Positions 23 to 50,252 of a DNA stretch of 64,000 nucleotides are shown piece after piece. The DNA is from an uncultured Myxococcaceae bacterium (GTDB lineage Bacteria > Myxococcota > UBA727 > JABDBI01), in contig CAZWPE010000001.1 of NCBI GenBank assembly GCA_964635635.1, positions 107,774 through 171,773 on the forward strand, in the 5' to 3' direction. Both the position numbers and the translations under genes were made by a program. The notes beneath the pieces were generated by a model, which saw only the letters and a list, made by a program, of their open reading frames with translations, was not told where the DNA came from and searched no databases. Position 1 is the stretch's first letter; every line of letters begins with the position of its first letter.

Positions 23-2053
23 TTGCGTTTAAACTTTGCGCTAAGTTTTCACGCCGTGAAAGACTCTCTCAATGAAAAAGCCTATCGATTGATGTTAACT
101 TCCCGCGAGCTGGATAAGAAAATGCTTATTCTGCTGCGCCAGGGTAAAAGCTTCTTTCATATTGGTTGCATGGGTCATGAAGCTGTTCAGGCAGCAGCTT
201 CCCTAAGCTTAGACCCTAAACGAGATTATTTATTTCCCTACTATCGCGATCAAACTTTTGTTTTGGGTATGGGGATGACACCTGAAGAATGTTTGTTGGG
301 ATTCTTGGGCCGTGAAGGGGACCCGAGCTCTAATGGTCGCCAAATGCCTCAGCACTATGGACACCCCAAACTGAATATTCCGAGTAGTTCGTCATCGACG
401 GGAACGCAGTTTTTGCAGGCTGTGGGTTGTGCGTTTGCTTCCATGCGACTGGATAAGCCTAAAGACTTGGCAGTAACGGTTGTTTGTTCGGGTGATGGCA
501 CGACCAGTCAGGGAGATTTTCATGAGGCTTTAAGTTGGGCCTCGCGTGAAAAAGCGCCAGTGATATTTTTGGTTGAGAACAATGGCTACGCAATTAGTGT
601 TCCGATTGCAGACCAGCGTCCTGGGGCGCAAATTGCCGATATGCATGGAGCGTACCCAGGCTTGAGCTTTATGCGGGTTGATGGTTGCGATTTCGAAGCC
701 AGCCATGTTGTATTTCAAAAAGCTGTGGCCCATGCACGTACAGGAAAGGGACCTGTTTTAATTGATGCGAGTGTTGTGCGCTTGTTGCCACACAGTTCAT
801 CGGATGATGATAAAAAATATCGCCCAGCCAAAGATTTAGAGGCTGAAAAAAAACGTGATCCCTTACTTGTAAACAAGCATCTTGTTTCTGCAAAGCGTTT
901 GAAAGCTTTAGAACAAGAAGTGTTTGAAGAAGTTGACGCTGCGGCGGATAGAGCGCTGGCAGCACCGGTGCCTAAGAGTGAAGATGCCTTGAGTTATGTT
1001 TATTCTCAGGCTTGTCCGAAGACCTCACCCTCGGTCCCTCTCCACCCAGTGGAGAGGGAAGGGGGGGCAGAGACCGTCCTCGTCGACGCCATCAACCGTG
1101 CACTGGCCGAAGAGCTTGAACGTGCTCCAAAAGTGCTCGTTTTTGGTCAAGATGTCGCTGGTGGTAAAGGTGGCGTATTTACGGCTACTAGGGGTCTTAC
1201 AAAGCAATTTGGCGAAGACAGGTGTTTTAATGCGCCGCTGGCTGAGTCGAGTATTGTTGGTGTGGCAATTGGAATGGCTTTGCGCGGCTTTAAACCAGTA
1301 CCAGAGATTCAATTTGGCGATTATATTTGGACTGCCATGATGCAGATTCGAAATGAACTGAGTGTCATGCGTTACCGCTCAAATAACGCCTGGAAAGCAC
1401 CTGTTGTAATTCGAGTTCCTGTTGGTGGTTATATCCACGGTGGTCTTTGTCACTCCCAAAATATTGAAGCCACATTTTCGCACTTTCCAGGTCTCAAGAT
1501 TGCCTATCCGTGTACGGCACTGGATGCTTATGGGCTGCTCAAAGAAGCCATTCGAGGCGATGACCCAGTTTTGTTTTTAGAACATAAGGGCCTGTACAGA
1601 CAAAACTTTGCCAAGAGTGTGTTGCCTGCTGGAACAGATTGGACCTTGCCATTTGGGGTTGCAGCAGTTCGCCGTGCTGGCAAGGACATGACCATTGTAA
1701 CTTATGGGGCACTGGTTCAACGTTCTATCGAAGTCGCGCGTGAACTTGAGGGTGAAGTTGATATTGAAGTGATCGACTTACGTACGATTAGACCGTATGA
1801 TTTTGATTCGGTCGCTGAAAGCGTCAAAAAGACAGGCCGGGTATTGGTTTTACACGAAGATACGCGCTTTATGGGTTTTGGGGCTGAGATAGCCGCTGAA
1901 ATTTCTGAGAAATGCTTCCAATATTTGGATGCCCCCGTTACTAGGCTGGCTGGAAAAGAATCACCCATCCCATATGCAGGCAACTTAGAAGAACAAGTCT
2001 TGCCTCAGGCTTCTTGGATTCAGGATTCAGTTAGAACTTTAATGGCTTATTAG
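23..2053 (+). CDS. Fused E1 alpha/beta subunit of a TPP-dependent 2-oxoacid (pyruvate/branched-chain) dehydrogenase; true start uncertain (TTG 23, GTG 56 or ATG 92)
   Basis: N-terminal half matches the E1 alpha TPP-binding region (YRLMLTSRELDKK, GDG..ENNGYAIS); C-terminal half matches E1 beta (VLVFGQDVAGGKGGVF, PLAESSIVGVAIGMA). An in-frame stop sits immediately upstream at 20-22. Confidence 0.85.
   Translation: MRLNFALSFHAVKDSLNEKAYRLMLTSRELDKKMLILLRQGKSFFHIGCMGHEAVQAAASLSLDPKRDYLFPYYRDQTFVLGMGMTPEECLLGFLGREGDPSSNGRQMPQHYGHPKLNIPSSSSSTGTQFLQAVGCAFASMRLDKPKDLAVTVVCSGDGTTSQGDFHEALSWASREKAPVIFLVENNGYAISVPIADQRPGAQIADMHGAYPGLSFMRVDGCDFEASHVVFQKAVAHARTGKGPVLIDASVVRLLPHSSSDDDKKYRPAKDLEAEKKRDPLLVNKHLVSAKRLKALEQEVFEEVDAAADRALAAPVPKSEDALSYVYSQACPKTSPSVPLHPVEREGGAETVLVDAINRALAEELERAPKVLVFGQDVAGGKGGVFTATRGLTKQFGEDRCFNAPLAESSIVGVAIGMALRGFKPVPEIQFGDYIWTAMMQIRNELSVMRYRSNNAWKAPVVIRVPVGGYIHGGLCHSQNIEATFSHFPGLKIAYPCTALDAYGLLKEAIRGDDPVLFLEHKGLYRQNFAKSVLPAGTDWTLPFGVAAVRRAGKDMTIVTYGALVQRSIEVARELEGEVDIEVIDLRTIRPYDFDSVAESVKKTGRVLVLHEDTRFMGFGAEIAAEISEKCFQYLDAPVTRLAGKESPIPYAGNLEEQVLPQASWIQDSVRTLMAY
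1029..1072. repeat. Family-1 palindromic element copy (CCCTCTCCAC-cca-GTGGAGAGGG + G-run), in-frame inside the E1 alpha/beta linker
   Basis: Perfect 10-bp inverted repeat; near-identical to the copy at 29407-29428. Confidence 0.7.
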
Positions 2054-2235: not shown

Positions 2236-3429
2236 ATGGCTCAGGAGCTTTCTTGGAAGGATTCGTTTGTTCGCGACTATTATTTAAAGAACCGTCTATC
2301 TTTGGCGTTTTATTCGAACTGCACCTTTGCTTTTGCAGATGAGGCGGGCTGCCCGGACGCTTGCTCGCGGGCGGCAAAGCTGATCGCTGCCGTTCGCCGT
2401 CAAAGACCGCCGGTGATTACGAGCCGAATTCCCAAACTGGGACGTGATGATTTGCGACAGTCCAAGGGAGATTGGATCGTGGTGGCTTGTTTGGGGCAGT
2501 TCTATCTTTTAAAGCAGGGCGCCACTGAAAATACATTGCGTGCTTTGGTTCATGATGCGCGTTGTTCTGCTCCAGAGCCTGAAGTTGGCTGGTTAACCCT
2601 GCTCCCCAGAGATGCTTTCGCTGAAGTTTACCCGCTGCTCGGCAAGAATGTAGAGCTTATTCAAAATGCAGTTATTCTTGTGGCTCTTGATTTAGATGCG
2701 GCTCCCAAAAATGATAACGAGTTTGCTCATGCTTTAGCCAATGGGGGTTTGGGTAACCGATGGTTTGATTTGTCGCTGCAATTGATTGTCACTGGCAACG
2801 GTAGAGCAGGGGGGAATACGGAACACACTGTTTATGATTCTTTGCCAGCTGGTACTTATGTGAATTCACTGATGAGTGATGTTCCTGCCGCTAGCGAAGA
2901 CCAAGGGTATGAAAAAATTCGTTGGCCCAATGACCTTAAAATTAGCCAGGCCATTGCTGAGGCGAAAAATTTTGCAGAGGCAGAAGTTTCTAAGCGCGAA
3001 ATACATTGCGTTCGAACCAGGGCGTTTGAACGAGATGTTGATGTTCAAATGGCGATCCAGTTGGCAGCAAAAGAAATATTCGGAGCACCACAGGTCACCA
3101 GTGAAGCTCTTAGTATGGCGCATATGCCAGAGGGACGTTATGCAACCATATTTTTTGAGTCACCTGAAGATTTGCAAAATCACCGGCAAAGAATCAAATC
3201 AGCCAAACTAGGCGAACCAATTCAAGTATTACCATGTGAAATCGTCACTTCAAACGCAGGGCACCATGAACACATTCCACTCATAGGCTTCACAGATACT
3301 GACCCAAATATTGTTGGAATCTCATATATTATGAAGCCAACCGAGACAGTATTTCACATTAAAGCAGATGGAGTTCACAAAGAAAAAGCCCGGAAGTATG
3401 CTTACTTTTTGAACCAGCTGTTGAGGTAG
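2236..3429 (+). CDS. Choline/carnitine O-acyltransferase family protein (short form lacking about 150 N-terminal residues relative to eukaryotic CrAT)
   Basis: NRWFDLSLQLIVTGNGRAGGNTEHTVYDS matches the catalytic-His block NRW[FY]DKSxQ..EH of carnitine acyltransferases. Downstream blocks (DVQMAIQLA, TSEALSMAHMPEGR, IVGISY) align with the CrAT C-terminal half. Confidence 0.7.
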   Translation: MAQELSWKDSFVRDYYLKNRLSLAFYSNCTFAFADEAGCPDACSRAAKLIAAVRRQRPPVITSRIPKLGRDDLRQSKGDWIVVACLGQFYLLKQGATENTLRALVHDARCSAPEPEVGWLTLLPRDAFAEVYPLLGKNVELIQNAVILVALDLDAAPKNDNEFAHALANGGLGNRWFDLSLQLIVTGNGRAGGNTEHTVYDSLPAGTYVNSLMSDVPAASEDQGYEKIRWPNDLKISQAIAEAKNFAEAEVSKREIHCVRTRAFERDVDVQMAIQLAAKEIFGAPQVTSEALSMAHMPEGRYATIFFESPEDLQNHRQRIKSAKLGEPIQVLPCEIVTSNAGHHEHIPLIGFTDTDPNIVGISYIMKPTETVFHIKADGVHKEKARKYAYFLNQLLR

Positions 3430-4808
3430 TTATACAGTTGTTTGGAACTGTCAAACAACCATGCAGCACCTGGCATTTCTTCTCTCTCTAGAGAAATCTC
3501 TCTTTCAATGTCTTCAAGTTTACTTTGAATTGTTGGATCATTTGGGTGGAATTTCATTAGTAGATTGCGTGCCATGTCGACAGTCTTCCGTGATTCAGCA
3601 TCTAAATCTAAAAAACTCAAAAGAGTTTCTTTGACTTTTTCATCTCTAAAGAAATTAGCGGCTTCATTGCGCACATACTCAGACCTATCCTCTAGGCATT
3701 GAGCAATGGCTTGATGAATCTTGGGATCTTGAGGCTTGATGGCGGCTAAAGCCTGGATGGCGGCTTCTCTTGCTCTCGGATATTCATTGCTCAGGCATTG
3801 AGCAATGGCCTGATGAATGCCGGGAGCTTGAGGTTTGATAAAGGCTAAAGCCCGAACGGCGGCTTGCCTTGCCTCACGATTTTCACGCTGCAGCAATTGA
3901 ACAAGGAATTGATGAATCTCTTGATCTTGAAGTTTGATAGAGGTTAAAGCGTCAACGGCGGCTTGCCTTACAAACCAATTTTCATCCTCCAGGCATTGAG
4001 CAATGGCTTGACGAATCTTGGGAACTTGAGGCTTGATGGCGGCTAAAGCCTGGAGGGCGGCTTGCCTTACCTCCGCATATGGATTCTCCAGGTGTTGAGC
4101 GATGGCTTGATGAATCTTGGGATCTTGAGGGTTGATGGCTTTTAAAGCCTGAACGGCAGCTTGCCTTACACTCCAATCTTTATCCCTCAGGGATTCAACG
4201 ATGACTTGATGAATCTTGGGATCTTGAGGCTTAATCGCTTCGAAGGCACTGATGGTAGCTATGCGTATGTGTGGATTGAGATCATTCAAATACCGAGCCA
4301 TGACTTCAAGGATATCTGAATCGATTGGTTTAACCTTAGCTAATGTTTCTAGAACGTCAACTATGTCTCCTCCTGAAGAACGTTCCGATTGCAATACTTC
4401 TTTAACGAGAGTTATGACAGCAGTTTCGTTACCCTTTTCAGCTGCAGAGCACAATTCAGCAACAGCGTTATTTGGATTTTTGTTGAATAAGCGCTGCCAA
4501 GTGGCTTCTGAGTAGTGCTGAATCCCCTCTTGGAATCCTTTGGAGGTTTTAGCTTGAGTCAAGAGACTTTTTGAAGAGTCACCTGAAAATGCAGCGATAC
4601 GTGCAGTAAAAGCAGGATTTTTAAACAATTCGTTTTTAGGAGCCGCGATGGCTTCTTTCTTGGTTTCAGGTACACGCAAAGGGCTCAAAGCTGCTTCATC
4701 TCTGCTCTGTCGATATTGGTCAGGTAGTTGCTTATACTCATCGCCCTTGCGGTTTTGTTGCTGTTGGTTTTCTTGAACAGAAATTTTTCCAGTAATACCT
4801 ATCTTCAT
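3402..4808 (-). CDS. HEAT/PBS-lyase-like repeat protein
   Basis: About 6-7 tandem 33-aa units (PQDPKIHQAIAQCLE..VRQAAVQALAAIK) typical of HEAT-like repeats. Confidence 0.8.
   Translation of the reverse strand: MKIGITGKISVQENQQQQNRKGDEYKQLPDQYRQSRDEAALSPLRVPETKKEAIAAPKNELFKNPAFTARIAAFSGDSSKSLLTQAKTSKGFQEGIQHYSEATWQRLFNKNPNNAVAELCSAAEKGNETAVITLVKEVLQSERSSGGDIVDVLETLAKVKPIDSDILEVMARYLNDLNPHIRIATISAFEAIKPQDPKIHQVIVESLRDKDWSVRQAAVQALKAINPQDPKIHQAIAQHLENPYAEVRQAALQALAAIKPQVPKIRQAIAQCLEDENWFVRQAAVDALTSIKLQDQEIHQFLVQLLQRENREARQAAVRALAFIKPQAPGIHQAIAQCLSNEYPRAREAAIQALAAIKPQDPKIHQAIAQCLEDRSEYVRNEAANFFRDEKVKETLLSFLDLDAESRKTVDMARNLLMKFHPNDPTIQSKLEDIEREISLEREEMPGAAWLFDSSKQLYNYLNSWFKK
3690..4290 (-). repeat. 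Tandem 99-bp DNA repeats (about 6 copies) encoding the HEAT-like units
   Basis: Recurring caggcattgagcaatggcttgatgaatcttgggatcttgaggcttgatggcggctaaagcc.. with a period of about 99 bp. Confidence 0.75.
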
Positions 4809-4915
4809 ACTCTTATTATAGGATCAATTTTATATAACCAGCAATTTTTATGGTAAATTATGATTGCGTATAAATTAAGTGCTTACAGCATGGTTCGATT
4901 GGATTAAACCTTTGT

Positions 4916-4978
4916 TGTCATCCCGGGCCCTAGCCCGGGATCCAGAGAAACACTGGATTCCAGCTTTCGCTGGAATGA
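4916..4978. repeat. Compound palindromic element / probable terminator: outer inverted repeat ttgtcatcc..ggaatgacaa enclosing three inner hairpins
   Basis: Inner hairpins are cccgggccctagcccggg, tccagagaaacactgga and ccagctttcgctgg. The element lies immediately 3' of the minus-strand ankyrin gene. Confidence 0.5.
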
Positions 4979-4995
4979 CAAAATTGGCTCAAAAT

Positions 4996-6192
4996 TTATG
5001 AGCTGCGCTGTAGAGTGCTTCCAATGATTACAACAGGGCTTCCTTGTAGGAATTCAGTAAAATCCAGAAGCTTTGGCTCTGCCAGGTGTTTGAACTCAAA
5101 AATACACGTTTCTTCTGTTCCGAACCAATTTTCCTGATTTACCAACATAAGTTTGTAGTGGTTTTTTAGATTGCGAACTTCAACACGAAAGTGTTTTTCT
5201 TGGTGGACGATTTGAGTACCTAACACTGTTTTTAGCTTGTGTAGATTGTAGGCCAAACTCTTGGCGAAAATTTTAACTTGATTTGGGCGTTTGGCTTTAT
5301 TGAGTACAGGCGCAAAAGACATGTAGGGGTATGCGCTCGAATCAAAGCACTGAGAAAGACCTTTATAGTGAAGTCCTGATTCAGTTTCGAGTGGGGGTAA
5401 AAATCGCTTGATAATCTGCTTTTGGCGGTCTGTGAATTTTTCAAAGAGGTTTAAAACTTTCATATCATTGATGTGGTCACTCTTCAAATTTTTACACCCT
5501 TCGAAGATTTTTTTCGCAGTCATGCCATGTTTGTCTTTAAGGCAGACTAGAGCGGGTGTGATGAATGGATGCGTGAGAAATGCTTCTACCTTCTCTGAAC
5601 TGCGAATAAGAGAGGCAAGATGAAGTGCACTTTGTCCTTCATGATTGATAGCGTCAAAAATAGAAGCTGTCATGTTTGGATGATGAAGTATTTTGATGAT
5701 TTGATTTGCCGAGGCATGCAGCATGTTACGGTGTAAGATAGTTTGCCCAAATGAATCTCGCTTGAGCCAGACGTCTTTTGAAAATCCAAGTTCGTCAAGT
5801 GTTTCAATGTCAGAGCGATCTGCAACGATGTCCATTGCGGTTTGATTATTGCTGTCTTGGATACCAACCACATCTCCTGTGGCAAAAGGATGCTCAATGA
5901 GTGTTTTAAATATGGTGAGAGTAGGCAAAGCTGCTGCATAGTGAAGAACCGTTCGGTTATTGGTGTCTTTTTGGGCAAATGTTTTGGAATCAAAATGCAT
6001 CGAATCTAAAATCCGCTCCACAGGTTCAAGACGTCCTTTTGAGACAGCGATATGCAGGGGAGTTTGAAATGCGTCGTTCAACTGCGTGATTTCGTTCTTG
6101 TCAAAAGTTTCTTCATGCAGTGGTTCTGGCTCGACAATACGCCAGAAGTTAGTGGTTCGGTATCCGCAGCTTGGGAGTGGCGCTTGAAGCAT
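4996..6192 (-). CDS. Ankyrin-repeat protein with a C-terminal domain of unknown function
   Basis: Repeated ankyrin signatures TPLHIAV, TVLHYAA, TILHRNM and SALHLAS. Confidence 0.8.
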   Translation of the reverse strand: MLQAPLPSCGYRTTNFWRIVEPEPLHEETFDKNEITQLNDAFQTPLHIAVSKGRLEPVERILDSMHFDSKTFAQKDTNNRTVLHYAAALPTLTIFKTLIEHPFATGDVVGIQDSNNQTAMDIVADRSDIETLDELGFSKDVWLKRDSFGQTILHRNMLHASANQIIKILHHPNMTASIFDAINHEGQSALHLASLIRSSEKVEAFLTHPFITPALVCLKDKHGMTAKKIFEGCKNLKSDHINDMKVLNLFEKFTDRQKQIIKRFLPPLETESGLHYKGLSQCFDSSAYPYMSFAPVLNKAKRPNQVKIFAKSLAYNLHKLKTVLGTQIVHQEKHFRVEVRNLKNHYKLMLVNQENWFGTEETCIFEFKHLAEPKLLDFTEFLQGSPVVIIGSTLQRSS

Positions 6193-6215: not shown

Positions 6216-6425
6216 TTGGCTAATATGGACGTCATGAGTACTTACCTGACTGAAACGAAACGGGTCGAGATGAAAAAACGAACAGCTTTTTTAGGTGTGA
6301 GCGGAATTGGCTTGCTTTTAAGCCTATTCTCAAGCGCTTTTCTGGGTATCCCAGTTTTAGCGCTTGGTGTTTATTTGGGTGTTAAGTGGTTTCAGTACAG
6401 AGCTCAAAACGGGATGCGATTTTAA
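6216..6425 (+). CDS. Small two-TM membrane protein (hypothetical), stop overlapping the putA start (TAATG)
   Basis: Two hydrophobic helices (FLGVSGIGLLLSLFSSAFLGIPVLALGVYLGV). Translational-coupling geometry with putA. No clear Shine-Dalgarno; start codon uncertain. Confidence 0.35.
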   Translation: MANMDVMSTYLTETKRVEMKKRTAFLGVSGIGLLLSLFSSAFLGIPVLALGVYLGVKWFQYRAQNGMRF

Positions 6426-9364
6426 TGCTGCAAACTCAAATCGAAGCTTTTGGTCTTAAACTTTTTGAGGAAATGCGTGGTGAAAAACCAGGCATTTTTA
6501 ACAGCGACTACTGGCAAGGAAAATTGATGGACTGGGTCATGAAAGATCCCAGTTTTAAAATCGACATGTTTCGTTTTGTCGATGTTTTGCCTCAACTTGA
6601 AACTTCAGGCCAGATTGCTGCCCACGTTCGTGAGTACTTGCTGAAAGAAGGCCGTCAGCTCCCCGCAGTGATTAACGTAGCCCTTAAAGCGGCCGCCAGT
6701 GGTTTGACCGCTGGAATAGCTGCAACCAGCATTCGTAAAAATATCAGCGATATGGCTGAGCGATTTATTGTGGGGCGTGATGCCAAGAGTGCGCTGTCTG
6801 AACTGCAAGCTTTGCATAAACAAGGCATCGCTTTTACCGTCGATTTGCTCGGCGAGTATACCTTGAGTGATGCTGAGGCAGATGAGTACAAAAATCGCTA
6901 TCTAGATTTGATTGCCAATATTGCAGGTGAAGCTGCCAAGTGGAAACCGGATTCAGTCATCGACGCAGTCCCACGCGTGAATGTGTCTGTGAAGGTCAGT
7001 GCGCTTGACCCCCAAGTGAAGGCTGTTGACCCGAAAGGTTCGGTGGAACGTCTGAAACAACGCCTGAGACCTCTGTTTGAAATGGCCATGAAGAATGGCG
7101 TATTTTTGAACCTTGATCTTGAGCAGTGGGAAGTTCATGGCATTACTTATGACCTGTTTGAAGAACTTCTTTTGGAGCCAGAGTTTGCAAAATATCCCCA
7201 TTTTGGGATTGTGATTCAGGCTTATTTGAAAGACTCGCTGCGTGATGCAGAACGTCTTCTTGCTCTCGCCAAAAAACGAGGGACCCCAGTTGGTGTTCGT
7301 TTGGTTAAAGGCGCATACTGGGACTTCGAAGTCGTGAACGCGAAGCAAAAGGGTTTCGAATGCCCAGTGTTTACGCAAAAAGCTGACTCTGATGTGAACT
7401 ACGAGCGCATCAGCAAGTTTTTGTTGGATCACATTGAGCATTTTAGGCCAGCATTTGGAAGTCACAATCTGCGTTCCATTAGTCACGCGATTGTTTATGC
7501 GGATAGTAAAAAAATCCCAGCGACGGCTTATGAAATTCAGATGCTTTATGGAATGGCAGAGCCAGAACGTAAGATTTTACGTTCTCGTGGAAACCTGGTT
7601 CGTGTTTATGCCCCGATAGGAGAGTTGCTTCCGGGTATGGCGTATTTGGTTCGGCGTTTGCTTGAAAACACGTCGAACTCTGGATTTTTGAAGCTTTCAC
7701 ATCAAGATGATGTGGATCCGAAGTTACTTTTGGTTGAGCCTGTTTCTCTCCCTCTCCCCTTGAGGGAGAGGGCTGGGGTGAGGGGTGAGTTTGAAAACTG
7801 CCCTTGGCTAGACTTTACGCGTGAAGAATCTCGAACAGCTTTTGCCAAAGCCATTGAAGCCTGGAAGCCTAAATTTCCAGTCACAGTCCCAGTGGTTATT
7901 GCCGGTGAAAAACAGGTCGGTGAGTCCGTGTTTGAACGCGTGACTCCCAACGATGGGCAAACTTTAGTGGCTAAAGTAGAGCTGGCCAGCAAAGCACAGG
8001 CTGAAAAAGCGATTCAAATTGCCACGCGTGCTTACCCTGCATGGCGAGATGGAGCTTTGGCTGAACGTGTAGAACGTTTAAACAAACTGGCTGATATATT
8101 GGAACGCGACCGTTTTGAATTAGCTGCGCTCATGTCCCATGAAGTGGCTAAGCCGTGGATTGAAGCGGATGCAGATGTCGGCGAAGCGGTTGATTTCTGC
8201 CGCTATTATGCTCAGCAGGCGCTCACAACACTTGCGCCCAGAAAACAAGGCAGTCTTTGGGGCGAAGATAATATTTTAAGCTATGAGGGCAGGGGGCCAA
8301 CACTTGTGATTGCTCCTTGGAATTTTCCCTTGGCCATTTTGTGCGGCATGGCAGCAGCAGCTCTTGTTGCTGGTAACTCTGTGATCTTAAAACCAGCAGA
8401 AACATCCAGTTTAACAGCAAAGATGCTGTTCGACCGTATGCTCGAAGCAGGTATTCCGAGTGACGTTGTCCAGTTCTTGCCGGGCCGTGGTTCTGAAGTA
8501 GGGGCGTATTTAGTTGAGCATCCACAAATTGCGCAAATTGCATTTACGGGCAGCAAGGAAGTTGGCCTGCAAATTATCGAAAAAGCGGCGCGAGTTCAGC
8601 ATGGCCAAGCACAAGTTAAGCGTGTGGTCTGCGAAATGGGCGGTAAAAATGCGATTGTGATAGACGACGATGCAGACTTAGATGAAGCAGCATTAGGTGT
8701 TATCCACAGTGCGTTTGGTTATGCAGGTCAAAAGTGTTCGGCAGCTTCGCGAATCATTGTCCATGCCAATGTTTATGACAGGTTTAAAAACCGGTTGGTT
8801 GAAGCTTGCAAGAGTCTATGCATTGCGCCTGCCACGAAACCTGGCTGTGGTGTTCCTCCGGTGGTTGATGCCAAATCCCAAAATCGCTTGCTCACTGAGA
8901 TTGAGTTGGCTGCTCGTGAACACAAATTGCTAATAAGTATCCCCCCTTTGCAAAAGGGGGGTCAGGGGGGATTTTTTGTCCCTGTAACGCTATTTGAAGT
9001 CCAAAACTCAAAATGCCGATTGATGCAAACAGAACTCTTTGGTCCAGTAATTGCGATTGCCAAGGCCAAGGACTTTGAAGAAGCCATTCAAATCGCAAAC
9101 GATACTGAGTTTGCTTTGACGGGTGCTGTTTATTCACGCAGCCCTAAGAATCTTGAATATGCACGAAAGGCCTTTAAGGTTGGCAATCTGTATCTTAACC
9201 GTGGAAGTACGGGTGCCATGGTTCATCGACAGCCATTTGGTGGCTTCAAAATGAGCGGCATTGGAACCAAAGCGGGTGGGCCAGATTACTTGATGCACTT
9301 TGTGGACCCCAGAGTGACCACTGAGAATACTTTGAGGCGTGGATTTACGCCGGATTTGGAATGA
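6425..9364 (+). CDS. putA: Bifunctional proline dehydrogenase / delta-1-pyrroline-5-carboxylate dehydrogenase PutA (no N-terminal DNA-binding domain)
   Basis: N-terminal PRODH TIM-barrel motifs followed by an ALDH domain (VCEMGGKNA, catalytic QKCSAASR, EEFGP-like ELFGPV). Confidence 0.9.
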   Translation: MLQTQIEAFGLKLFEEMRGEKPGIFNSDYWQGKLMDWVMKDPSFKIDMFRFVDVLPQLETSGQIAAHVREYLLKEGRQLPAVINVALKAAASGLTAGIAATSIRKNISDMAERFIVGRDAKSALSELQALHKQGIAFTVDLLGEYTLSDAEADEYKNRYLDLIANIAGEAAKWKPDSVIDAVPRVNVSVKVSALDPQVKAVDPKGSVERLKQRLRPLFEMAMKNGVFLNLDLEQWEVHGITYDLFEELLLEPEFAKYPHFGIVIQAYLKDSLRDAERLLALAKKRGTPVGVRLVKGAYWDFEVVNAKQKGFECPVFTQKADSDVNYERISKFLLDHIEHFRPAFGSHNLRSISHAIVYADSKKIPATAYEIQMLYGMAEPERKILRSRGNLVRVYAPIGELLPGMAYLVRRLLENTSNSGFLKLSHQDDVDPKLLLVEPVSLPLPLRERAGVRGEFENCPWLDFTREESRTAFAKAIEAWKPKFPVTVPVVIAGEKQVGESVFERVTPNDGQTLVAKVELASKAQAEKAIQIATRAYPAWRDGALAERVERLNKLADILERDRFELAALMSHEVAKPWIEADADVGEAVDFCRYYAQQALTTLAPRKQGSLWGEDNILSYEGRGPTLVIAPWNFPLAILCGMAAAALVAGNSVILKPAETSSLTAKMLFDRMLEAGIPSDVVQFLPGRGSEVGAYLVEHPQIAQIAFTGSKEVGLQIIEKAARVQHGQAQVKRVVCEMGGKNAIVIDDDADLDEAALGVIHSAFGYAGQKCSAASRIIVHANVYDRFKNRLVEACKSLCIAPATKPGCGVPPVVDAKSQNRLLTEIELAAREHKLLISIPPLQKGGQGGFFVPVTLFEVQNSKCRLMQTELFGPVIAIAKAKDFEEAIQIANDTEFALTGAVYSRSPKNLEYARKAFKVGNLYLNRGSTGAMVHRQPFGGFKMSGIGTKAGGPDYLMHFVDPRVTTENTLRRGFTPDLE
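7746..7789. repeat. Family-1 palindromic element copy (CCCTCTCCCCTTGAGGGAGAGGGCTGGGGTGAGGGGT), in-frame in putA
   Basis: 38-bp stretch identical except for one base to 26520-26557. Confidence 0.75.
8937..8978. repeat. Family-2 palindromic element copy (ATCCCCCCTTTGCAAAAGGGGGGTCAGGGGGGATTTTTTG), in-frame in the putA ALDH domain
   Basis: About 41-bp motif shared with 44469-44507. Confidence 0.75.
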
Positions 9365-10332
9365 GCGAGTCCGAACACCTCACCCAGTTTCAGCCAAGGC
9401 TGAAACAGCCCTCTCCCCTGAAGCGGAGAGGGCAAGTCTTGGCTGGCCTTGTGGGTATTTCTCTGGTTGCATACATGGTGGGCCATATTGGTTTGGACCA
9501 AGTGCTTCATGCCCTAAGAGGCGCAGCTTATTATTTCCCTGCTATCTTATTGTGCGAGTTCTTTTTTTGGTTTTTTGGGACTCTTTCGCAGCGTGCACTC
9601 TATGGCGTTGATGCTAAAAAGATTCCGTGGGGCACGATTTGGCGTTCAGGTTTTACGGCTTACGCCATCATGGGTCTGATTCCAATGGGCCGTATTGTCG
9701 CGGAGTCAGCTCGGGCAGTAGCGTTTGCGCCTTATGTGGGCAAACCCAAGGCCGCTGTGGTAGCGGTTCAGGTTCAGATTTTGGCTTTGTGTGTGACGGC
9801 TTTAGTGGCTGGTGTATCTGGTTTATTTATTGTGACTCGTGCCTGGGGAAGCCCTGCTGCATGGCTTGCCATTGCCAATGCAGGCGGGGCATTGGTTTTG
9901 GCTGTTTTAGCAGCCATGGCAACCAAACACCTAAGATTGGGTCAAAAGCTGGGGTTCTTACTGCCCAGGATTCAGCTCTTTGGACAGGAGTTTGATGCCC
10001 ACTTTGCCGGTTCGGCAGTTTTGCCGCGTGCAGCCTTTGGTTATGAGTTGCTCTGCCGTTTAAGTCAGATTGTCCAAAATGGTTTGCTGGTCATGGCTGT
10101 AGGTGGGGCTTTGGGTATTTCGAATGCCTTTTGTTCTGAGGGCTTGCATCTGATTGGTGCGACTCTGGGTGATCTGGTTCCGGGCCAGTGGGGCGTAACT
10201 GAACTGGTTTATGGTGAAACAGGCTCTATTCTAGGTCTTGGAGACCAAGGAGCCTTAGGGATTGCCTTGCAGGCGCATTTGGCCCAGCTGTTTTGGGTGT
10301 TTGTGACTTTGTTAATGAAAGTGTTGTTGTAA
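9361..10332 (+). CDS. UPF0104 / lysylphosphatidylglycerol-synthase-TM-like integral membrane protein
   Basis: Multiple TM helices throughout. ATGA start overlap with the putA stop. Confidence 0.6.
   Translation: MSESEHLTQFQPRLKQPSPLKRRGQVLAGLVGISLVAYMVGHIGLDQVLHALRGAAYYFPAILLCEFFFWFFGTLSQRALYGVDAKKIPWGTIWRSGFTAYAIMGLIPMGRIVAESARAVAFAPYVGKPKAAVVAVQVQILALCVTALVAGVSGLFIVTRAWGSPAAWLAIANAGGALVLAVLAAMATKHLRLGQKLGFLLPRIQLFGQEFDAHFAGSAVLPRAAFGYELLCRLSQIVQNGLLVMAVGGALGISNAFCSEGLHLIGATLGDLVPGQWGVTELVYGETGSILGLGDQGALGIALQAHLAQLFWVFVTLLMKVLL
9388..9436. repeat. Family-1-like palindromic element (GCCCTCTCC-cctgaagc-GGAGAGGGC) plus adjacent hairpin tttcagccaaggctgaaa, in-frame at the N-terminus of the UPF0104 gene
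   Basis: Inverted repeats seen directly. Confidence 0.6.
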
Positions 10333-10397
10333 ATTTGAAAAACAAATAAGATTTATTTATTATATAAAAAGTTTCAGTGTCTGGTGAGGGGGATCCA

Positions 10398-12899
10398 ATG
10401 AGTCAAAGATTAGGTTTCAGTCCGGCTGAATTCAGAGAACAAGGTGACTACGAGCAAGAGGGTGAGAAACGTGTTTCGGGAAAGGATGCGGGTGTTGATG
10501 TTTATGAGGCGCCCTCTTTGCTGGAACAAGTTTCTAGAGGCTTAACTCCTCAAATTATAGAGAGTTATTTGAAAGAACCGGATGGAGAAGAAAAAACTAA
10601 GCTTCTACAAGCAATGGGCCAAAAAATAAAACCTGAGACATTGTCTAAACTGCCGCCAGAATCAGTGTCGAAACTTCATGAAATTTTTCAGAATAAGGGC
10701 AAACTCGAGGTAAGATGGGCGATCGAGGATGCGCAGTGGGAAAATGAAAAAATGTCGAGGTTTGTGATAGCCCCATACCGACGTAAACTCGATTTTGCAG
10801 ATTTAGAAGAGTATCTAAAAAAAGGAGCGAGTATTAACTTTCGACTGCCCGAAAATAATGCAAACGCAAACGACAACAGTGGCAATTTTCCGGGGATGAA
10901 CCTGATTCAGATGGCATTATCTCTAAATGATATGGATACTGTGAGTAAGCTATTTGCGAGAGGTGCTCAATTTACAGAAGAAGATGCTAATTATATGTAT
11001 CCCCAAGAATATTGGTTGGGCAATGTAAGTTTGGCCCATAGACTCTTGGAGTCTGGTTACACAGATGCTTTTATTTGGCTGATTGATCATGGGGCTAACC
11101 CTAATCAAATCATTTCAAAATATGGGGACCCTTTTGATGCATTGAGCCTAGCGCAAGCAGCTTTAAAAAAAGGCGATGTGATGGCATTTGAAAAACTCAT
11201 TGAAAAAGGTGCTGATATCAACCTGCCATTTCCCCGTACGAGTACAACAGGGGAATATGCGAATAAAACTCTTGCTCAGGTTGTCCTAGAGAGGGGGGAT
11301 ACAAACGCCCTTAGGCTTCTCCTGGAAAAAGGTGTTTCTCCTAACCAAACTTTTCCTTCTGCTTGGAATTCTGAGGCTACCTACAAAGGCATGACTCTTT
11401 TGCAGGTGGCTATGATACTAGGGCATACAGATATCGCTATGCTACTGCTCGATCATGGAGCCGATCCAGATCGAGTCTTCCCAGGGACCATTGATGAACA
11501 CCGTGATTATGCTGGCAGGACACCGATTCAGATTGCTCTGAGGCAGAACAATACGGGGCTGATTGAGAAACTCATCGAGCGTGGTGCATCAAGCAAGGGT
11601 TTAACGAGTCCGTTGACTTTTAAAGCGTTGCGTTTACCACGAGAAGATTTGGAATCGATTAAGCCATTAGAAAATGGCGATAGTATTGAACAAATTATCG
11701 AAAAATCAAAAGATAAAAAATGGATTCAAGAATTCTTTGGAGACCCAAAACCTGCCAACGAAGGAGACCAAAAACCTGTCATTGAATATGTGGACGACCA
11801 TCATTCGAAAAACGGACATACTCGCGAAGACATCATTAACGGTCTTCAGGTTTTTTTCGAAAGAATTCAGAAAAGAGAGGCTGTTCTGGGGACGCCTCCG
11901 TCAAATCAACTTAAAGAGTTAAATGCGTATTATGACAACATGTTCCATCGCTTGCAGCATATTTTTTCGTTCTTAGAACAGAAAGAGATTGCTCAAGATA
12001 TCAAACGGGCTGCTCTCGATATGATTTATGGGGGTTCTTTGGCTTGCGGTACGGCTTGGTTCAATGAGGTTAAGAGTGCCTATGAACTTCTTAAATCGCA
12101 GATTAAAGCACCCCAACAAAGTTCTGCCACAGCAGCAAGCGCTGCAGATGAAAGTTTTCAAAGTGAGTATGAGTCGATCATTGAGCAGCGCTTGTATGAA
12201 TTTAGAAGGCGTTGTTTTGAATCTGCTCTGCCCAACAACAATACGCACACCTATAACGCCTACATGCGCGAGCTGGGGGTTGAGTTTGGGGTGGCGGGAA
12301 AAAATTCAAGCTATGACGATCCAACCGTTGTTCCTATTTCAGAGTACGAAAAAGCTGTTTTCAGACACAAGGTCGAGTCTCTTTATGAGCCAAAACTTAT
12401 CATTGATTTTATATATAAAATTTCCAAAGATAAAACACAAATAGGTGAGGGGATTATCCCTGGTCTGCTTGCTGACTATGGACCTAAAGTAAGCCAAACT
12501 CAAGCTAATAGGTATTTTGTGTTGGAAAATAAGAAGGAAAAAGATGAGCTCAGTGGCGAAGAGTTGAGGGAATATGAGGAACTTACAAAAATTATCTCTC
12601 AGGAAGATGATTATACGGAGATGACGCTTGGAAAAGAATACGAGCCAACCCGAGAAGGCGTGGAATATTTGCTTAAAGCTTTAGGCATATTACGAATTAG
12701 AGACCTGAAAGGGATAAAGCTCGATCCATGGAGCCAATTCTTAATAAGACGTAAACAAAAGGAGCTCGAGTCAGCAGAGGAAGGCTCCGAAAGGCAAAGA
12801 GACCTAAAAGAATGGCTTTCAGAAGCTCAGGCTGAGCAAATTCAAGAAGTTAAGCAAACAAAGAAGGCTTCATCAGCCACAGCTGCCGCTAGTTCTTAA
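10398..12899 (+). CDS. Large ankyrin-repeat protein with an acidic, coiled-coil-rich C-terminus (effector-like); ORF opens at GTG 10377, ATG 10398 preferred
   Basis: At least five ankyrin units (GMNLIQMALSLND.., DALSLAQAALKKGD.., KTLAQVVLERGDTNALRLLLEKGVSPN, MTLLQVAMILGHTDIAMLLLDHGADPD, RTPIQIALRQNNTGLIEKLIERGA). GAGGGGGA lies upstream of the ATG. Confidence 0.75.
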   Translation: MSQRLGFSPAEFREQGDYEQEGEKRVSGKDAGVDVYEAPSLLEQVSRGLTPQIIESYLKEPDGEEKTKLLQAMGQKIKPETLSKLPPESVSKLHEIFQNKGKLEVRWAIEDAQWENEKMSRFVIAPYRRKLDFADLEEYLKKGASINFRLPENNANANDNSGNFPGMNLIQMALSLNDMDTVSKLFARGAQFTEEDANYMYPQEYWLGNVSLAHRLLESGYTDAFIWLIDHGANPNQIISKYGDPFDALSLAQAALKKGDVMAFEKLIEKGADINLPFPRTSTTGEYANKTLAQVVLERGDTNALRLLLEKGVSPNQTFPSAWNSEATYKGMTLLQVAMILGHTDIAMLLLDHGADPDRVFPGTIDEHRDYAGRTPIQIALRQNNTGLIEKLIERGASSKGLTSPLTFKALRLPREDLESIKPLENGDSIEQIIEKSKDKKWIQEFFGDPKPANEGDQKPVIEYVDDHHSKNGHTREDIINGLQVFFERIQKREAVLGTPPSNQLKELNAYYDNMFHRLQHIFSFLEQKEIAQDIKRAALDMIYGGSLACGTAWFNEVKSAYELLKSQIKAPQQSSATAASAADESFQSEYESIIEQRLYEFRRRCFESALPNNNTHTYNAYMRELGVEFGVAGKNSSYDDPTVVPISEYEKAVFRHKVESLYEPKLIIDFIYKISKDKTQIGEGIIPGLLADYGPKVSQTQANRYFVLENKKEKDELSGEELREYEELTKIISQEDDYTEMTLGKEYEPTREGVEYLLKALGILRIRDLKGIKLDPWSQFLIRRKQKELESAEEGSERQRDLKEWLSEAQAEQIQEVKQTKKASSATAAASS

Positions 12900-12988
12900 T
12901 GGAAATGGGTTGTTTTTGTGGCTTTGTTACTAAATCTGTTGTCTACCCGACCGCAAAGTGCTACGGTCCGGCCGCAATAGGAGTTTTT

Positions 12989-26171: not shown

Positions 26172-26747
26172 ATGCATATGTATGGCGGCGGCGTAAATGT
26201 AAAATTGTCCAGAGATGTGATGGGGATTCAAATCCCTGATGGTAATCCTGTGACCTTGGAACAAGGCCATGAAGTTTACATTATGCAAGTTCTGGGCGGC
26301 ATGTTTACGGTTGAAACAGAATGGGGTTATTTGGCTCGGGTAGACGGTAAAGATGCTGATGCTTTAGGACAAGAAATCCCGCCGGAACGCCAAAAGCCAG
26401 ATTGGTCAAAGTTTACGACACTTGAAGATGCTGCGTGGGCCCAGCTTAGAACTTGTTATGATCCTGAAATCCCAGTCAATATTGTTGAATTAGGGCTTAT
26501 CTATAAGCTACAGCTGGCTCCCTCTCCCCTTGAGGGAGAGGGCCGGGGTGAGGGGTCCGTGTTGCACGTCGATATGACTTTAACTGCACCCGGCTGTGGA
26601 ATGGGTGAGGTTTTGCGCAATGATATTGAAACCAAATTGCTGGATATCCCTGGGGTAAAGGCTGTGGTCATCGACCTGACCTTTGACCCGCCCTGGAACT
26701 CAGAAATGATGTCTGATGCAGCTAGATTGCAGCTGGGGATGATGTAA
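26172..26747 (+). CDS. SufT-like DUF59 (MIP18 family) protein with an about 90-aa N-terminal extension and an in-frame palindromic-element insert
   Basis: C-terminal TAPGCGMG and DUF59 blocks. Located at the end of the suf cluster. Confidence 0.65.
   Translation: MHMYGGGVNVKLSRDVMGIQIPDGNPVTLEQGHEVYIMQVLGGMFTVETEWGYLARVDGKDADALGQEIPPERQKPDWSKFTTLEDAAWAQLRTCYDPEIPVNIVELGLIYKLQLAPSPLEGEGRGEGSVLHVDMTLTAPGCGMGEVLRNDIETKLLDIPGVKAVVIDLTFDPPWNSEMMSDAARLQLGMM
26517..26558. repeat. Family-1 palindromic element copy, in-frame in the SufT-like gene (encodes SPLEGEGRGEGS)
   Basis: Near-identical to the putA copy at 7746-7789. Confidence 0.75.
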
Positions 26748-43841: not shown

Positions 43842-44062
43842 ATCGTAACAATGTGACCACGGGTGAGTACGTGCTGGGCTTTGAGTTTTGTCACCCAGTC
43901 GTTTTGCTCTAAGAGCTCGAGCGCGGACTCCAAAAATTTGATTTTAACAAGCTCATGAGCTTCGAGGGCAGCGTCAATCTCTTTGAGAATGCTATCTGTA
44001 ATTCCGTTTTTACCAACCAAAACAATTGGTTTTAAATGATGTGCCTGAGCTTTTAAATCCAC
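43736..44062 (-). CDS. yhbY: YhbY/CRS1 (CRM-domain) RNA-binding protein
   Basis: HHLKPIVLVGKNGITDSILKEIDAALEAHELVKIK matches YhbY. The 3' end overlaps the TSUP gene convergently. Confidence 0.7.
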   Translation of the reverse strand: MDLKAQAHHLKPIVLVGKNGITDSILKEIDAALEAHELVKIKFLESALELLEQNDWVTKLKAQHVLTRGHIVTIYRERKRRTETKSKKPAKSLVKTRTGKKTARRAPR

Positions 44063-44100
44063 ACTGTACGAATAGGATACTTTTTAGTAGCTTGCAATGT

Positions 44101-44847
44101 GTGAAAGTAGCTTTATGTCAGTTTAACCCGGTGGTTGGTGCGATTACTCAAAATGGAGCTCGCTTATTAGAGTTTGCGCACAAGGCTGGAAAGAATGGCG
44201 CGGATTTGATGTTGGCGCCTGAATTGGCGCTTTGTGGCTATCCACCTAAAGATTTAATGGGCAATTCTGATTTTCACGCTGCATGTAAGGCTCAACTTAC
44301 CCAGCTTGCCGAGCAAGCGCCGATCCCAACGATTATGGGTGCGCCTGACAGTTTATATAACGCAGCATTCTACTGCTTTGCAGGACAGCACCAAGTTGTG
44401 GCTCGCAAACAGCTGCTCCCTAATTATCAAGTTTTTGACGATAAACGCTATTTTAAGCCTGGCGGTTATATTCCCCCCTTTGAAACAGGGGGGCAGGGGG
44501 GATTTTCTGTGGGCATCACAATTTGCGAAGACGCTTGGAACGATGCTGAATTCTGGCCAAATCGGCGATATGATTTAGACCCAGTCAATGAACTGGTGAA
44601 CCGTGATAACCCAGACATATTGGTGACGCTTATGGCATCCCCATTTGAACCAGGTAAAGCAGCGATTCGCGATGCCATGTTTTCACATATGGCTAAGAGA
44701 TATTCCAAGCCTGTTTTGGTGGTTGGCCAAGTGGGTGCCAATGATGGGCTGATTTTTGAGGGTGGCTCTATGATGATTGATGCCCAGGGGGAGATTGTGC
44801 ACCGTGCTGCCGATTTTCAGGAGGATTTAGTCATATGCGAACTGTAG
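44101..44847 (+). CDS. Nitrilase/CN-hydrolase (glutaminase) domain protein of NAD synthetase, encoded separately; GTG start
   Basis: VKVALCQFNPVVGAI.. and GITICEDAW catalytic-Cys block. Carries a family-2 palindromic insert. The ORF opens at 44026, but the yhbY start on the other strand is at 44062. Confidence 0.7.
   Translation: MKVALCQFNPVVGAITQNGARLLEFAHKAGKNGADLMLAPELALCGYPPKDLMGNSDFHAACKAQLTQLAEQAPIPTIMGAPDSLYNAAFYCFAGQHQVVARKQLLPNYQVFDDKRYFKPGGYIPPFETGGQGGFSVGITICEDAWNDAEFWPNRRYDLDPVNELVNRDNPDILVTLMASPFEPGKAAIRDAMFSHMAKRYSKPVLVVGQVGANDGLIFEGGSMMIDAQGEIVHRAADFQEDLVICEL
44469..44507. repeat. Family-2 palindromic element copy, in-frame in the nadE nitrilase domain (encodes IPPFETGGQGGFS)
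   Basis: ATTCCCCCCTTTGAAACAGGGGGGCAGGGGGGATTTTCTG; compare 8937-8978. Confidence 0.75.
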
Positions 44848-45650
44848 CGCAGGCAATTGTTCTTGGAATTCGTGACTACGCCCAAAAACTAGGTGCTCCA
44901 GGGGTGTTAATTGGCTTGTCAGGCGGCATTGATTCGGCTGTAACAGCAGCTCTTGCCGTTCAAGCATTGGGAGCAGCGCGTGTGATTGGTGTTCGCATGC
45001 CAAGCAAGTTTAGCTCTGAACACTCTTTGGAAGATGCTGAACTTCTTGCAAATACGCTTGGCATCGAATTGCGTACGATCGATATTGAACCCGGTGTGCA
45101 GGCACTTCGAGAGATGCTTGACCTTCAAAAACCAGTCAGTGACCAAAATCTCCAATCTCGTGTGCGTGGACTGACATTGATGGGTCTTTCGAATGACACG
45201 GGTTACTTTGTGCTCTCAACAGGCAATAAAAGCGAACTCGCGATGGGTTACACAACCCTTTATGGTGATATGTGCGGCGCTTTAATGCCGATTGGTGATT
45301 TGTACAAAACACAAGTGTATGAGTTGGCCAGGTTGTTAGATGGAATCCCCGAACGAAGTATTACCAAGCCTCCAAGCGCAGAGCTGGCGCCGGGACAACT
45401 AGACCAAGACACGTTGCCGCCGTATGAGTTGCTTGATGTTGTGCTTGAGCGCTATCTCGAAAGCGATATGGCTGCGAGCAAGATTGCTGCTGAGACAGGT
45501 ATGTCCGTGAACGATATCGAGCGCATTGTTAAACAGGTGAATTCTTGTGAGTACAAACGTAAACAAGCACCGCCGATTTTAATGGTTTCAAAACGTGTGT
45601 TTGGGGAAGCTCGCCGGTGGCCGATTGTGGCCTGTTACCCAAAGCTTTAG
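44835..45650 (+). CDS. nadE: NAD+ synthetase (ATP pyrophosphatase domain)
   Basis: PP-loop GLSGGIDSAVTAALA. caggagga RBS 8 nt upstream. 13-nt overlap with the nitrilase ORF in a different frame. Confidence 0.85.
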   Translation: MRTVAQAIVLGIRDYAQKLGAPGVLIGLSGGIDSAVTAALAVQALGAARVIGVRMPSKFSSEHSLEDAELLANTLGIELRTIDIEPGVQALREMLDLQKPVSDQNLQSRVRGLTLMGLSNDTGYFVLSTGNKSELAMGYTTLYGDMCGALMPIGDLYKTQVYELARLLDGIPERSITKPPSAELAPGQLDQDTLPPYELLDVVLERYLESDMAASKIAAETGMSVNDIERIVKQVNSCEYKRKQAPPILMVSKRVFGEARRWPIVACYPKL

Positions 45651-49389: not shown

Positions 49390-49617
49390 AAATAGAAGTC
49401 CTCCCAAATAGGAAGAAACGCAATTACGCAATCTTTGTCCCATTTGCAAACCGGCTCAAGTCCCTGAAAATATTTTGATTTTAAAATATTAAAGAAATAT
49501 TTTGTTTTGTAAAGAAAATAATCTAGAACGCTCGACCCATCGTATGGGTTTAAGACAAGATAATAATAGATAAAAGGTTTTCGTTTGTGGAAACCCAGGT
49601 CTAAGGAGGATTTTACA

Positions 49618-50199
49618 ATGGCTGAAAAAGTCGTACGTGCAGGGATTGAGCGTAAAAAAGGGTGGCTTTACTATTTAGATAAGAACTTAAATGTATATAG
49701 AGTTAAAATGGTTCGCGGTGGCGAAAAGAAAGCAAAGGGTGAACGCCCAGAGCTGGTTCTTAAGACCGATATGAGAAGAGACCAGAACTATTTGTATTAC
49801 GTAGATAAGGCAGGGGACATTTCCCGTGTCAAGGCAAGCCGAGGAGGCACTGCCCGTAAAGGTAAAAAACGCCGCAGAACCGCTGCGCAAAGGAAAGCAA
49901 TGTTAGAGAAGAAGAAAGCTCTGAAGAAGAAGAAAGCTGAAGCTAAGAAGAAAAAAGCCGCTGCTAAGAAGAAGAAATCAGCAGCTTTGAAAGCTAAGAA
50001 GAAAGCTGCAGCAGCTAAGAAGAAAGTAGCTAAGAAGTCTAAGAAAGTTAAGGCTAAAAAAGCTGTTAAAAAGCCAAAAGCTAAGAAAGTAGTCAAAAAA
50101 GCTAAGGCTAAAAAAGCTGTCAAAAAGCCAGCTAAGAAAAAAGCCGCTCCTAAAAAGAGCCATGGCAAAAAGAAAGTAGCTAAGAAGAAAGCTGCTTAA
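49618..50199 (+). CDS. Histone H1-like Lys/Ala-rich protein with a duplicated N-terminal module
   Basis: taaggagga RBS 7 nt upstream. Two 35-aa repeats (GWLYYLDKNLNVYRVK.. / NYLYYVDKAGDISRVK..) followed by an about 100-aa AKKKK-type tail encoded by low-complexity tandem DNA. Confidence 0.7.
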   Translation: MAEKVVRAGIERKKGWLYYLDKNLNVYRVKMVRGGEKKAKGERPELVLKTDMRRDQNYLYYVDKAGDISRVKASRGGTARKGKKRRRTAAQRKAMLEKKKALKKKKAEAKKKKAAAKKKKSAALKAKKKAAAAKKKVAKKSKKVKAKKAVKKPKAKKVVKKAKAKKAVKKPAKKKAAPKKSHGKKKVAKKKAA

Positions 50200-50209
50200 T
50201 AGCGCTTTC

Positions 50210-50252
50210 CCTATAACCCTCTCCCTCTGGGAGAGGGCAGGGAGAGGGATAG
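50210..50252. repeat. Family-1-like GA/CT palindromic element, intergenic, immediately upstream of a terminator
   Basis: CCCTCTCCCTCTGGGAGAGGGCAGGGAGAGGG. Confidence 0.6.

Follow-up and report, generated by a model that had tools for sequence, protein, structure and literature searches.

Background

The intrastrand triplex motif TMECO, also known under the older names BoxC and PIT, has the form CCCTCNCCC-N3-6-GGGNGAGGG-N3-GGGNGAGGG; Holder et al. (2015, PMC4666352) counted 23 copies in Escherichia coli K-12 and 3610 across 262 proteobacterial genomes. We analyzed two near-identical copies of this repeat that are translated as parts of the putA and sufT genes in a 64-kb stretch of DNA (64,000 nt of contig CAZWPE010000001.1, referred to here as the window) from a metagenome-assembled genome (MAG) of a Myxococcota bacterium. 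Earlier work on the element is said to include that of Bachellier in the 1990s and of Hoyne and Maher in 2000 and 2002. While the repeat family itself is known, two results are new: the in-frame copies along with their excess conservation, and an association of the family with DUF559 nuclease genes. The in-frame copies belong to the window and the DUF559 association does not.

The E. coli TMECO consensus forms a stable triplex in vitro as an isolated strand, and none was detected in vivo; the repeat shows no promoter, terminator or in vivo polymerase-blocking effect in E. coli and has no known mobility, and its loci are linked to local genome instability (PMC4666352). The same E. coli sequences (HPG1/HPG2) behave in vitro as a K+/Mg2+-dependent switch between hairpin and G-quadruplex (Kaplan et al. 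2016, PMC5100583). Both papers stress that the E. coli copies are all intergenic.

The window copies share several traits with Rickettsia palindromic elements (RPEs), being structured repeats that lie in-frame in unrelated housekeeping genes, in different frames and in surface loops, in a host whose many eukaryote-like genes suggest a host-associated lifestyle. RPEs, reportedly described by Ogata and colleagues in 2000, are said to be 100-150 bp long and restricted to Rickettsia. The window element differs in both respects, being ~39 nt long and pan-bacterial, and in its third, mirror arm, a contrast drawn at the level of description. Another relevant system is that of the REP/REPIN repeats and their RAYT (IS200/IS605-like Y1) transposases, reportedly the subject of work by Nunvar in 2010 and by Bertels and Rainey in 2011. 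Unlike REP repeats, the window element has no GTAG head, and its positions -2/-1 are pyrimidines (Y-Y).

A 37-nt repeat shared by putA and sufT

The sequence CCCTCTCCCCTTGAGGGAGAGGGC[T/C]GGGGTGAGGGGT occurs on the + strand of the window at 7750-7786 and 26520-26556, with 36/37 identical bases and a sole difference at position 25 (T/C). Including the preceding CT, the shared block spans 39 nt (7748-7786 and 26518-26556), and chance matches to the 37-mer numbered 0.00 in 100 dinucleotide shuffles. The original prediction, made from the letters of the window, had placed both copies correctly and given their length as 38 bp; base 38 differs between them (G at 7787, C at 26557).

The first copy (e2) resides in a putA-like ORF (6386..9364, + strand, 992 aa; PutA_N, Pro_dh and Aldedh domains) encoding a bifunctional proline dehydrogenase/P5C dehydrogenase, where it is read as LPLPLRERAGVRG in an inter-domain linker. 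The second (e4) resides in sufT (26172..26747, + strand, 191 aa; PF01883), the last gene of a sufBCDS-nifU cluster, and is read as PSPLEGEGRGEG. Both copies are in-frame and stop-free within these long + strand ORFs, as had been proposed. They are read in two different frames, and the identity is therefore at the level of DNA and not of protein; the third sense frame of the 37-mer contains a TGA stop inside the loop. One DNA sequence yielding two different peptides bears out the earlier claim that the sharing is not due to protein function, and a selected protein-level motif was ruled out on the basis of the different frames.

The description of the element as palindromic applies to its first 23 nt, an inverted repeat with a 9-bp stem and a 5-nt loop, and not to the last 12 nt, which hold a second, mirror G-rich arm separated from the hairpin by 3 nt. 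The e2 block thus reads CT, C-arm CCCTCTCCC, loop CTTGA, G-arm GGGAGAGGG, loop CTG, mirror G-arm GGGTGAGGG and GT, with loop 2 replaced by CCG in e4. The C-arm and first G-arm form 9/9 pairs, and the 9-bp hairpin is present in the minimum-energy fold of 3 of the 4 strands folded (the exception is window:26510-26570:+). A triplex finder scored the second G-arm, after CTG/CCG, with 0 mismatches to the G*G, A*A, T*A mirror rule. The same sequence contains four runs of ≥3 G with spacers of 1-7 nt, a canonical G-quadruplex motif (GGGAGAGGGCTGGGGTGAGGGG). Folding energies were unremarkable when compared to shuffles (z from -0.2 to -1.8) because any shuffle of such composition folds well, and the idea of an unusually stable fold was set aside. 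Rfam searches of the whole window at the gathering threshold returned one tRNA only, and thus no known RNA family at the repeats.

Identity with TMECO and distribution among bacteria

Copies e2 and e4 match the TMECO pattern base for base, with near-identical entries in Table 1 of PMC4666352. In both, CCCTCTCCC followed by CTTGA corresponds to the CCCTCNCCC arm with its 3-6 nt loop, GGGAGAGGG to the first GGGNGAGGG arm (the full complement of the C-arm), and the 3-nt loop 2 with its mirror-rule G-arm to the second GGGNGAGGG arm. Loop 2, with the sequence CYG, resembles type B, and the likeness extends to multiple copies, high conservation and local sequence turnover. The difference is one of location: the E. 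coli copies are intergenic, whereas both strict window copies lie inside ORFs, in-frame in putA and sufT of a Myxococcota genome with ~45% GC.

The TMECO pattern was found at ≥120 loci in contigs representing one genome per species. Phyla among the matches listed include Pseudomonadota, Planctomycetota, Chloroflexota, Verrucomicrobiota, Cyanobacteria, Acidobacteriota, Omnitrophota, Calditrichota, Myxococcota and others, which adds many phyla to the published survey of proteobacteria. The window's exact 36-mer is present in ≥120 metagenome contigs that range from 31 to 74% GC and have nothing else in common with the window. Flanking conservation is confined to positions -3 to -1 (G-Y-Y) and +1/+2 (G-rich), and the repeat unit is therefore ~40 nt. 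The element is not lineage-specific, and the suggestion of a novel palindromic element does not hold; it is a member of the pan-bacterial BoxC/PIT/TMECO family. An apparent likeness between locus L183 and the e2 flank (67 nt, 88%) was discarded, as the 30 nt remaining after removal of the element are ~73% identical, which is not meaningful.

Where the arms are asymmetric, the third arm mirrors the second (A may become T): among all fetched loci, 58 fit the mirror arrangement only and 15 the direct arrangement only. An antiparallel purine-motif triplex follows this rule.

Six C-G-G motifs in the window

Counting all instances of the three-part C-G-G (class-II) architecture, there are 6 in the window and 0 in 30 shuffles. 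Five of the six lie inside ORFs, in loops or linkers, and one is intergenic; in 4 of the 5 coding copies the G-rich half is on the sense strand. Besides e2 and e4, the coding copies comprise a degenerate TMECO-like motif and two members of a second C-G-G family. The degenerate copy (e1, 1022..1059, - strand; TCCCTCTCCAC/GTGGAGAGGGA/AGGGTGAGG, loop 2 CCG) is antisense to a gene for a fused 2-oxoacid dehydrogenase E1 alpha-beta protein, where it falls in the hypervariable linker that joins E1_dh to Transket_pyr. An earlier description of every copy as lying on the + strand was dropped, since e1 fits the minus strand better. The second family is represented by e3 (8941..8974, + strand; CCCCCCTTT-GCA-AAAGGGGGG-TCA-GGGGGGATT), in-frame in putA with the peptide IPPLQKGGQGGF, and by e5 (44473..44505, + strand; CCCCCCTTTGAAACAGGGGGGCAGGGGGGATTT), in-frame in a carbon-nitrogen hydrolase gene with the peptide IPPFETGGQGGF.

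The sole intergenic copy (e6, 50217..50248, + strand; CCCTCTCCC-TCT-GGGAGAGGG-CA-GGGAGAGGG) begins 18 nt 3' of a lysine-rich ORF (49585..50199) and is followed by a terminator-like GC hairpin and a T-run. This ORF is lysine/alanine-rich and contains repeats of 21-54 nt (AAGAAGAAAGCT…); it gave no match in Pfam and resembles a histone-H1/Hc1-like DNA-binding protein.

The coding copies compared with relatives

The closest SufT homologues (85-90% identical) lack 11 residues of the window protein, and the conserved flanks of the site are separated by 19 nt in three empty-site loci and by 52 nt in the window, a net gain of 33 nt. In the SufT AlphaFold model the extra residues form a loop between the strands at 110-117 and 129-137, with pLDDT <60. 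The peptide is thus an insertion in a low-confidence loop between two beta strands, as had been anticipated. A miniature inverted-repeat transposable element with terminal inverted repeats and target-site duplication was considered and rejected, as there is no duplication at sufT and flank conservation covers just 2-3 nt. What had been described as a mobile or proliferating element tolerated in coding sequence does show RPE-like behavior; we infer its mobility from presence and absence among relatives, and the sites showed no transposition signature such as a target-site duplication.

The e2 site is a hypervariable PutA linker after the proline dehydrogenase domain, and three relatives carry three different repeats there: e2 in the window, a 27-nt hairpin repeat (GTCATTCCAGCGAAAGCTGGAATCCAG) in locus L001 (PutA 94% identical) and a degenerate C6/G6/G6 motif in L125 (PutA 74% identical). 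The other putA copy, e3, is common to the window and L001 and makes the protein 4 residues longer than PutA orthologues of 74% identity. Copy e5 is present in the window and in locus L261; P0243, 7 residues shorter, lacks it. At the e1 site the nearest homologues are ≤69% identical and the E1 alpha-beta linker is hypervariable.

The exact 27-mer GTCATTCCAGCGAAAGCTGGAATCCAG also occurs at window 4953-4979, in an intergenic position, and is read in-frame in the L001 putA linker (~4560-4590) as VIPAKAGIQ. Spurious ORFs of many Proteobacteria often contain peptides of this type. The L261 carbon-nitrogen hydrolase gene contains another in-frame insertion of 34 aa (~330-440; …SSLRAKRSNPGFVDCHGAIAPRNDD…), encoded by an inverted-repeat element (GTCATTGCGAGCGAAGCGAAGCAATCCAG … GCGCCTCGCAATGAC) that is absent from the window orthologue. 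That gene encodes the glutaminase (CN_hydrolase) part of NAD+ synthetase in the window, where the CN_hydrolase and NAD_synthase ORFs (44026-45650) are separate with a 13-nt overlap, and not fused as in many homologues; close relatives likewise have a stand-alone ~245-aa CN_hydrolase form.

Coding and intergenic copies in other genomes

Among 149 copies in other genomes, 68% lack a long spanning ORF, compared to 26% of random positions, so the coding share outside the window is ≤32%, an upper bound. The share in the window (5/6) is higher (Fisher p = 0.018). Relaxed selection in a host-associated organism, as in Rickettsia, could explain this high coding fraction.

In-frame copies were nevertheless found across several other phyla, which contradicts the view that very few lineages have such elements. 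The host proteins are IleRS (Devosia), DnaE2 (Bradyrhizobium), LigA (Planctomycetota), an AcrB-family pump, YgiQ and DnaX; both orientations of the copies are seen, and each copy is flanked on either side by Pfam domains. The triplex/G-quadruplex-prone 39-mer thus repeatedly gives rise to small insertions in loops of conserved proteins, and also to spurious ‘PLPxGEGxGEG’ peptides in annotation. None of the papers covered by our literature search describes in-frame copies of the motif or mentions their peptides.

Some coding insertions are inverted doublets, as in L047 (Bradyrhizobium DnaE2; SLPPCGGGLGRG…LPLSPTLPHKGGES), L007 (Betaproteobacteria DnaX) and L081. Translation can therefore extend to whole BoxC-type pairs and is not limited to solo copies.

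Association with DUF559 nuclease genes

When all ORFs of 240 motif-bearing loci were clustered to find recurrent neighbors, the sole recurrent non-housekeeping neighbor was DUF559 (PF04480), a Vsr-like PD-(D/E)XK nuclease of ~110 aa. Other recurrent neighbors (ABC ATPases, response regulators, SDRs) belong to large housekeeping families, none of them bracketed by motifs, and were set aside. Of 11 independent loci with a ~310-nt DUF559 core, 9 have a motif no more than 100 nt away on one flank or both, and 5 have one on each flank, compared to 4.2% (one side) and 0.06% (both sides) for random intervals of the same loci (p≈2e-11 and p≈4e-14). Bracketed examples, drawn from loci L002-L245 and L246-L260, are L230 (391-816), L176 (552-1026) and L249 (419-843). 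No identical DUF559 units were found in differing genomic contexts, repeated matches being one locus from different samples. The bracketing pair is inverted, usually with unlike loop 2 sequences (TTA/TTG vs. CYG/CCG), which is exactly the pairing of type A with type B found in E. coli doublets (Holder et al., PMC4666352).

An unbiased sample of 14 DUF559 genes from plasmids and chromids, chosen by tblastn similarity alone, gave a comparable picture: C-G-G motifs lie within ~100 nt of 8 genes, mostly on both sides, and at ~190 nt of a ninth (N. gonorrhoeae). The chance of 9/14 is ~6e-6 at a generous background. Arm sequences vary by lineage, with CCTCCCCC/GGGGGAGG/GGAGGGGG in Deinococcus, CCCCTCCCGC/GCGGGAGGGG/GGGGAGGG in Sphingomonas and a third variant in Photobacterium.

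The DUF559 gene of E. coli K-12, ycjD, has TMECO no. 9 as a neighbor at a distance of 167 nt (NC_000913.3 1351204-1351760). The gene is present in 3,377 of 5,426 complete E. coli genomes, and in an evenly spaced sample the median number of further TMECO-like places was 21 with ycjD and 10 without (Mann-Whitney p = 6e-9, a comparison that ignores phylogeny). According to a recent paper, ycjD occupies the site where the eefRABCD operon is missing, with the operon inferred to have been lost at least twice; the authors draw no link to ycjD mobility. The eefRABCD/ycjD polymorphism fits an unstable locus. None of the papers covered by our literature search connects DUF559 or ycjD with BoxC/TMECO, and the link is absent from the TMECO papers themselves.

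The DUF559 profile matches PDB 3HRL and has a weak match to the catalytic domain of the EDxHD/Vsr-like homing endonuclease I-Bth0305I (3R3P, E = 6e-4), a fold used by selfish, homing genes. I-Bth0305I differs in its location in a phage group I intron and in its extra DNA-binding region, whereas DUF559 genes are free-standing, ~110 aa long and flanked by triplex motifs.

The arrangement recalls the REP/RAYT system: a short hairpin repeat occurs in tens of dispersed copies and in inverted doublets, and inverted repeats that enclose a small, single-copy gene for a nuclease co-vary with the lineage of that gene. A repeat-bracketed, co-varying nuclease gene is the pattern that identified RAYTs as REP transposases. 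Here the bracketed gene is DUF559 and not a Y1 transposase, and the likeness is by analogy. The pattern does not prove mobilization; mobilization by DUF559 is what we infer from it. BoxC/TMECO and its lineage-specific C-G-G relatives may be the cognate repeats of DUF559 (YcjD-type) nucleases and form a second, RAYT-independent REP-like system, a tentative proposal to which we give rather less than even weight. In it, a small PD-(D/E)XK endonuclease, domesticated or selfish, would recognize the hairpin/triplex repeat and copy and paste it around the genome, coding sequence included. The bracketing offers a concrete candidate for the long-missing mobilizing activity of BoxC/TMECO. If true, the proposal would provide a function for DUF559 and E. 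coli ycjD and for a repeat family that has been an orphan for 30 years, and would explain the instability of TMECO loci.

Origin of the in-frame copies

Taken with the insertions and frames described above, the match to a known family makes it likely that the window 37-mers are BoxC/PIT/TMECO copies pasted into protein genes of a low-GC Myxococcota genome as DNA-level events. In such a model, the C-rich arm of a single strand would pair with the first G-rich arm in a 9-bp hairpin, and the second G-rich arm could fold back as a third strand into a purine-motif triplex; alternatively, the four G-runs could form a G-quadruplex. The TMECO repeat and a sister family (C6/G6/G6) would be pasted into protein-coding genes, and the copies that survive would be those that are in-frame, stop-free and situated in surface loops or in linkers between domains, sites at which a peptide rich in Pro, Gly, Glu and Arg does no harm. 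With insertion at the level of DNA, the peptides would therefore be by-products. Copying might proceed by break and repair begun in trans by the DUF559 nuclease, much as RAYTs act on REPs; this is the likeliest candidate, albeit one that we put somewhat short of an even chance.

Several observations weigh against insertion by such a system. Outside the window the motif is mostly intergenic. The filled and empty sufT sites differ by 52 nt in place of 19 nt, with neither a target-site duplication nor a clean boundary. There is no DUF559 ORF in the window or its related loci, and 6 of the 14 sampled DUF559 genes have no flanking motif. The flanking motifs vary in orientation, the hairpin facing outward in most loci and inward in Deinococcus and Synechocystis. 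Genomes of E. coli without ycjD keep up to ~20 copies (again ignoring phylogeny). Holder et al. (PMC4666352) report neither a link of TMECO to mobile elements nor a stable triplex in vivo.

A further observation of this kind is that e3 and e5 have changed far less than their host genes, which hints at function or homogenization and not at a neutral passenger. Copy e3 is identical at 41/42 positions between the window and L001, whose putA DNA is 83.5% identical, and e5 at 34/35 positions between the window and L261, whose gene is 73.5% identical; the single change of each pair falls in a loop. By our own arithmetic, the chance of such conservation is roughly 5e-3 for e3 and 3e-4 for e5. A passive passenger model leaves this unexplained; the alternatives are selection on the structure and homogenization of the copies by conversion.

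In-gene copies might accordingly be kept as functional structures, for example as an mRNA hairpin or G-quadruplex that slows translation where domains meet, or as a structure in the DNA that modulates replication or recombination. Beyond the loop-only changes in e3 and e5, this explanation draws on the sense-strand position of the G-rich half in 4 of the 5 coding copies, the location of several copies at domain junctions and the K+/Mg2+-dependent hairpin/G-quadruplex switch of the E. coli sequences in vitro (Kaplan et al., PMC5100583). It has to contend with closest orthologues that do without the insertions and seem unimpaired, with a putA linker that is filled by different repeats in different relatives, with E. 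coli tests that gave no promoter, terminator or in vivo polymerase-blocking effect (PMC4666352), and with folding energies that are ordinary when compared to shuffles. Gene conversion between copies is equally able to give the conservation. We consider a functional role unlikely, although it is the alternative that survives best.

Much less probable is the reading of the original prediction, that a miniature inverted-repeat or RPE-like mobile element specific to this Myxococcota clade arose there and is proliferating. Presence and absence between close relatives, several copies in 64 kb and the tolerance of in-frame copies, as with RPEs, would all suit such an element. The same sequence is, however, found in E. 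coli K-12 and many phyla, and the exact 36-mer in contigs across a wide GC range that are otherwise unlike the window; the element also lacks terminal inverted repeats past the hairpin and a target-site duplication, and is 39 nt long as opposed to the 100-150 nt of RPEs. Least credible of all are protein-level selection of a Pro/Gly-rich motif, where the Pro/Gly/Glu/Arg-rich character of both peptides is offset by the same DNA giving two different peptides, and an assembly or binning artefact, where the MAG source and the e2/e4 junctions without a match in an independent assembly are outweighed by the exact retention of frame and flanking conserved residues at both insertions (rare for a chimeric join), the confirmation of e3 and e5 in independent assemblies (L001 and L261) and like in-frame copies in isolate genomes (e.g., Bradyrhizobium DnaE2).

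Other features of the window

Several proteins encoded in the window are eukaryote-like (2236-6192, 10377-12899, 18835-20547, 47604-48752, 53305-54486): a carnitine/choline acyltransferase, a HEAT-repeat protein, two ankyrin-repeat proteins, a thaumatin-domain protein, a pepsin-type aspartyl protease and an Rsm22-like methyltransferase. These proteins, along with a GC content of ~45% in a Myxococcota MAG, suggest a host-associated lifestyle. An ankyrin-repeat gene of 840 aa (10377..12899) lies between an LPG-synthase-like gene and the L28/groES/groEL region and has no counterpart in the syntenic L001 stretch (window 9364-12925 vs. L001 6126-7009). The gene for the HEAT-repeat protein contains 99-nt tandem DNA repeats at 3687-4334, and a tRNA gene is located at 45661-45747 on the - strand.

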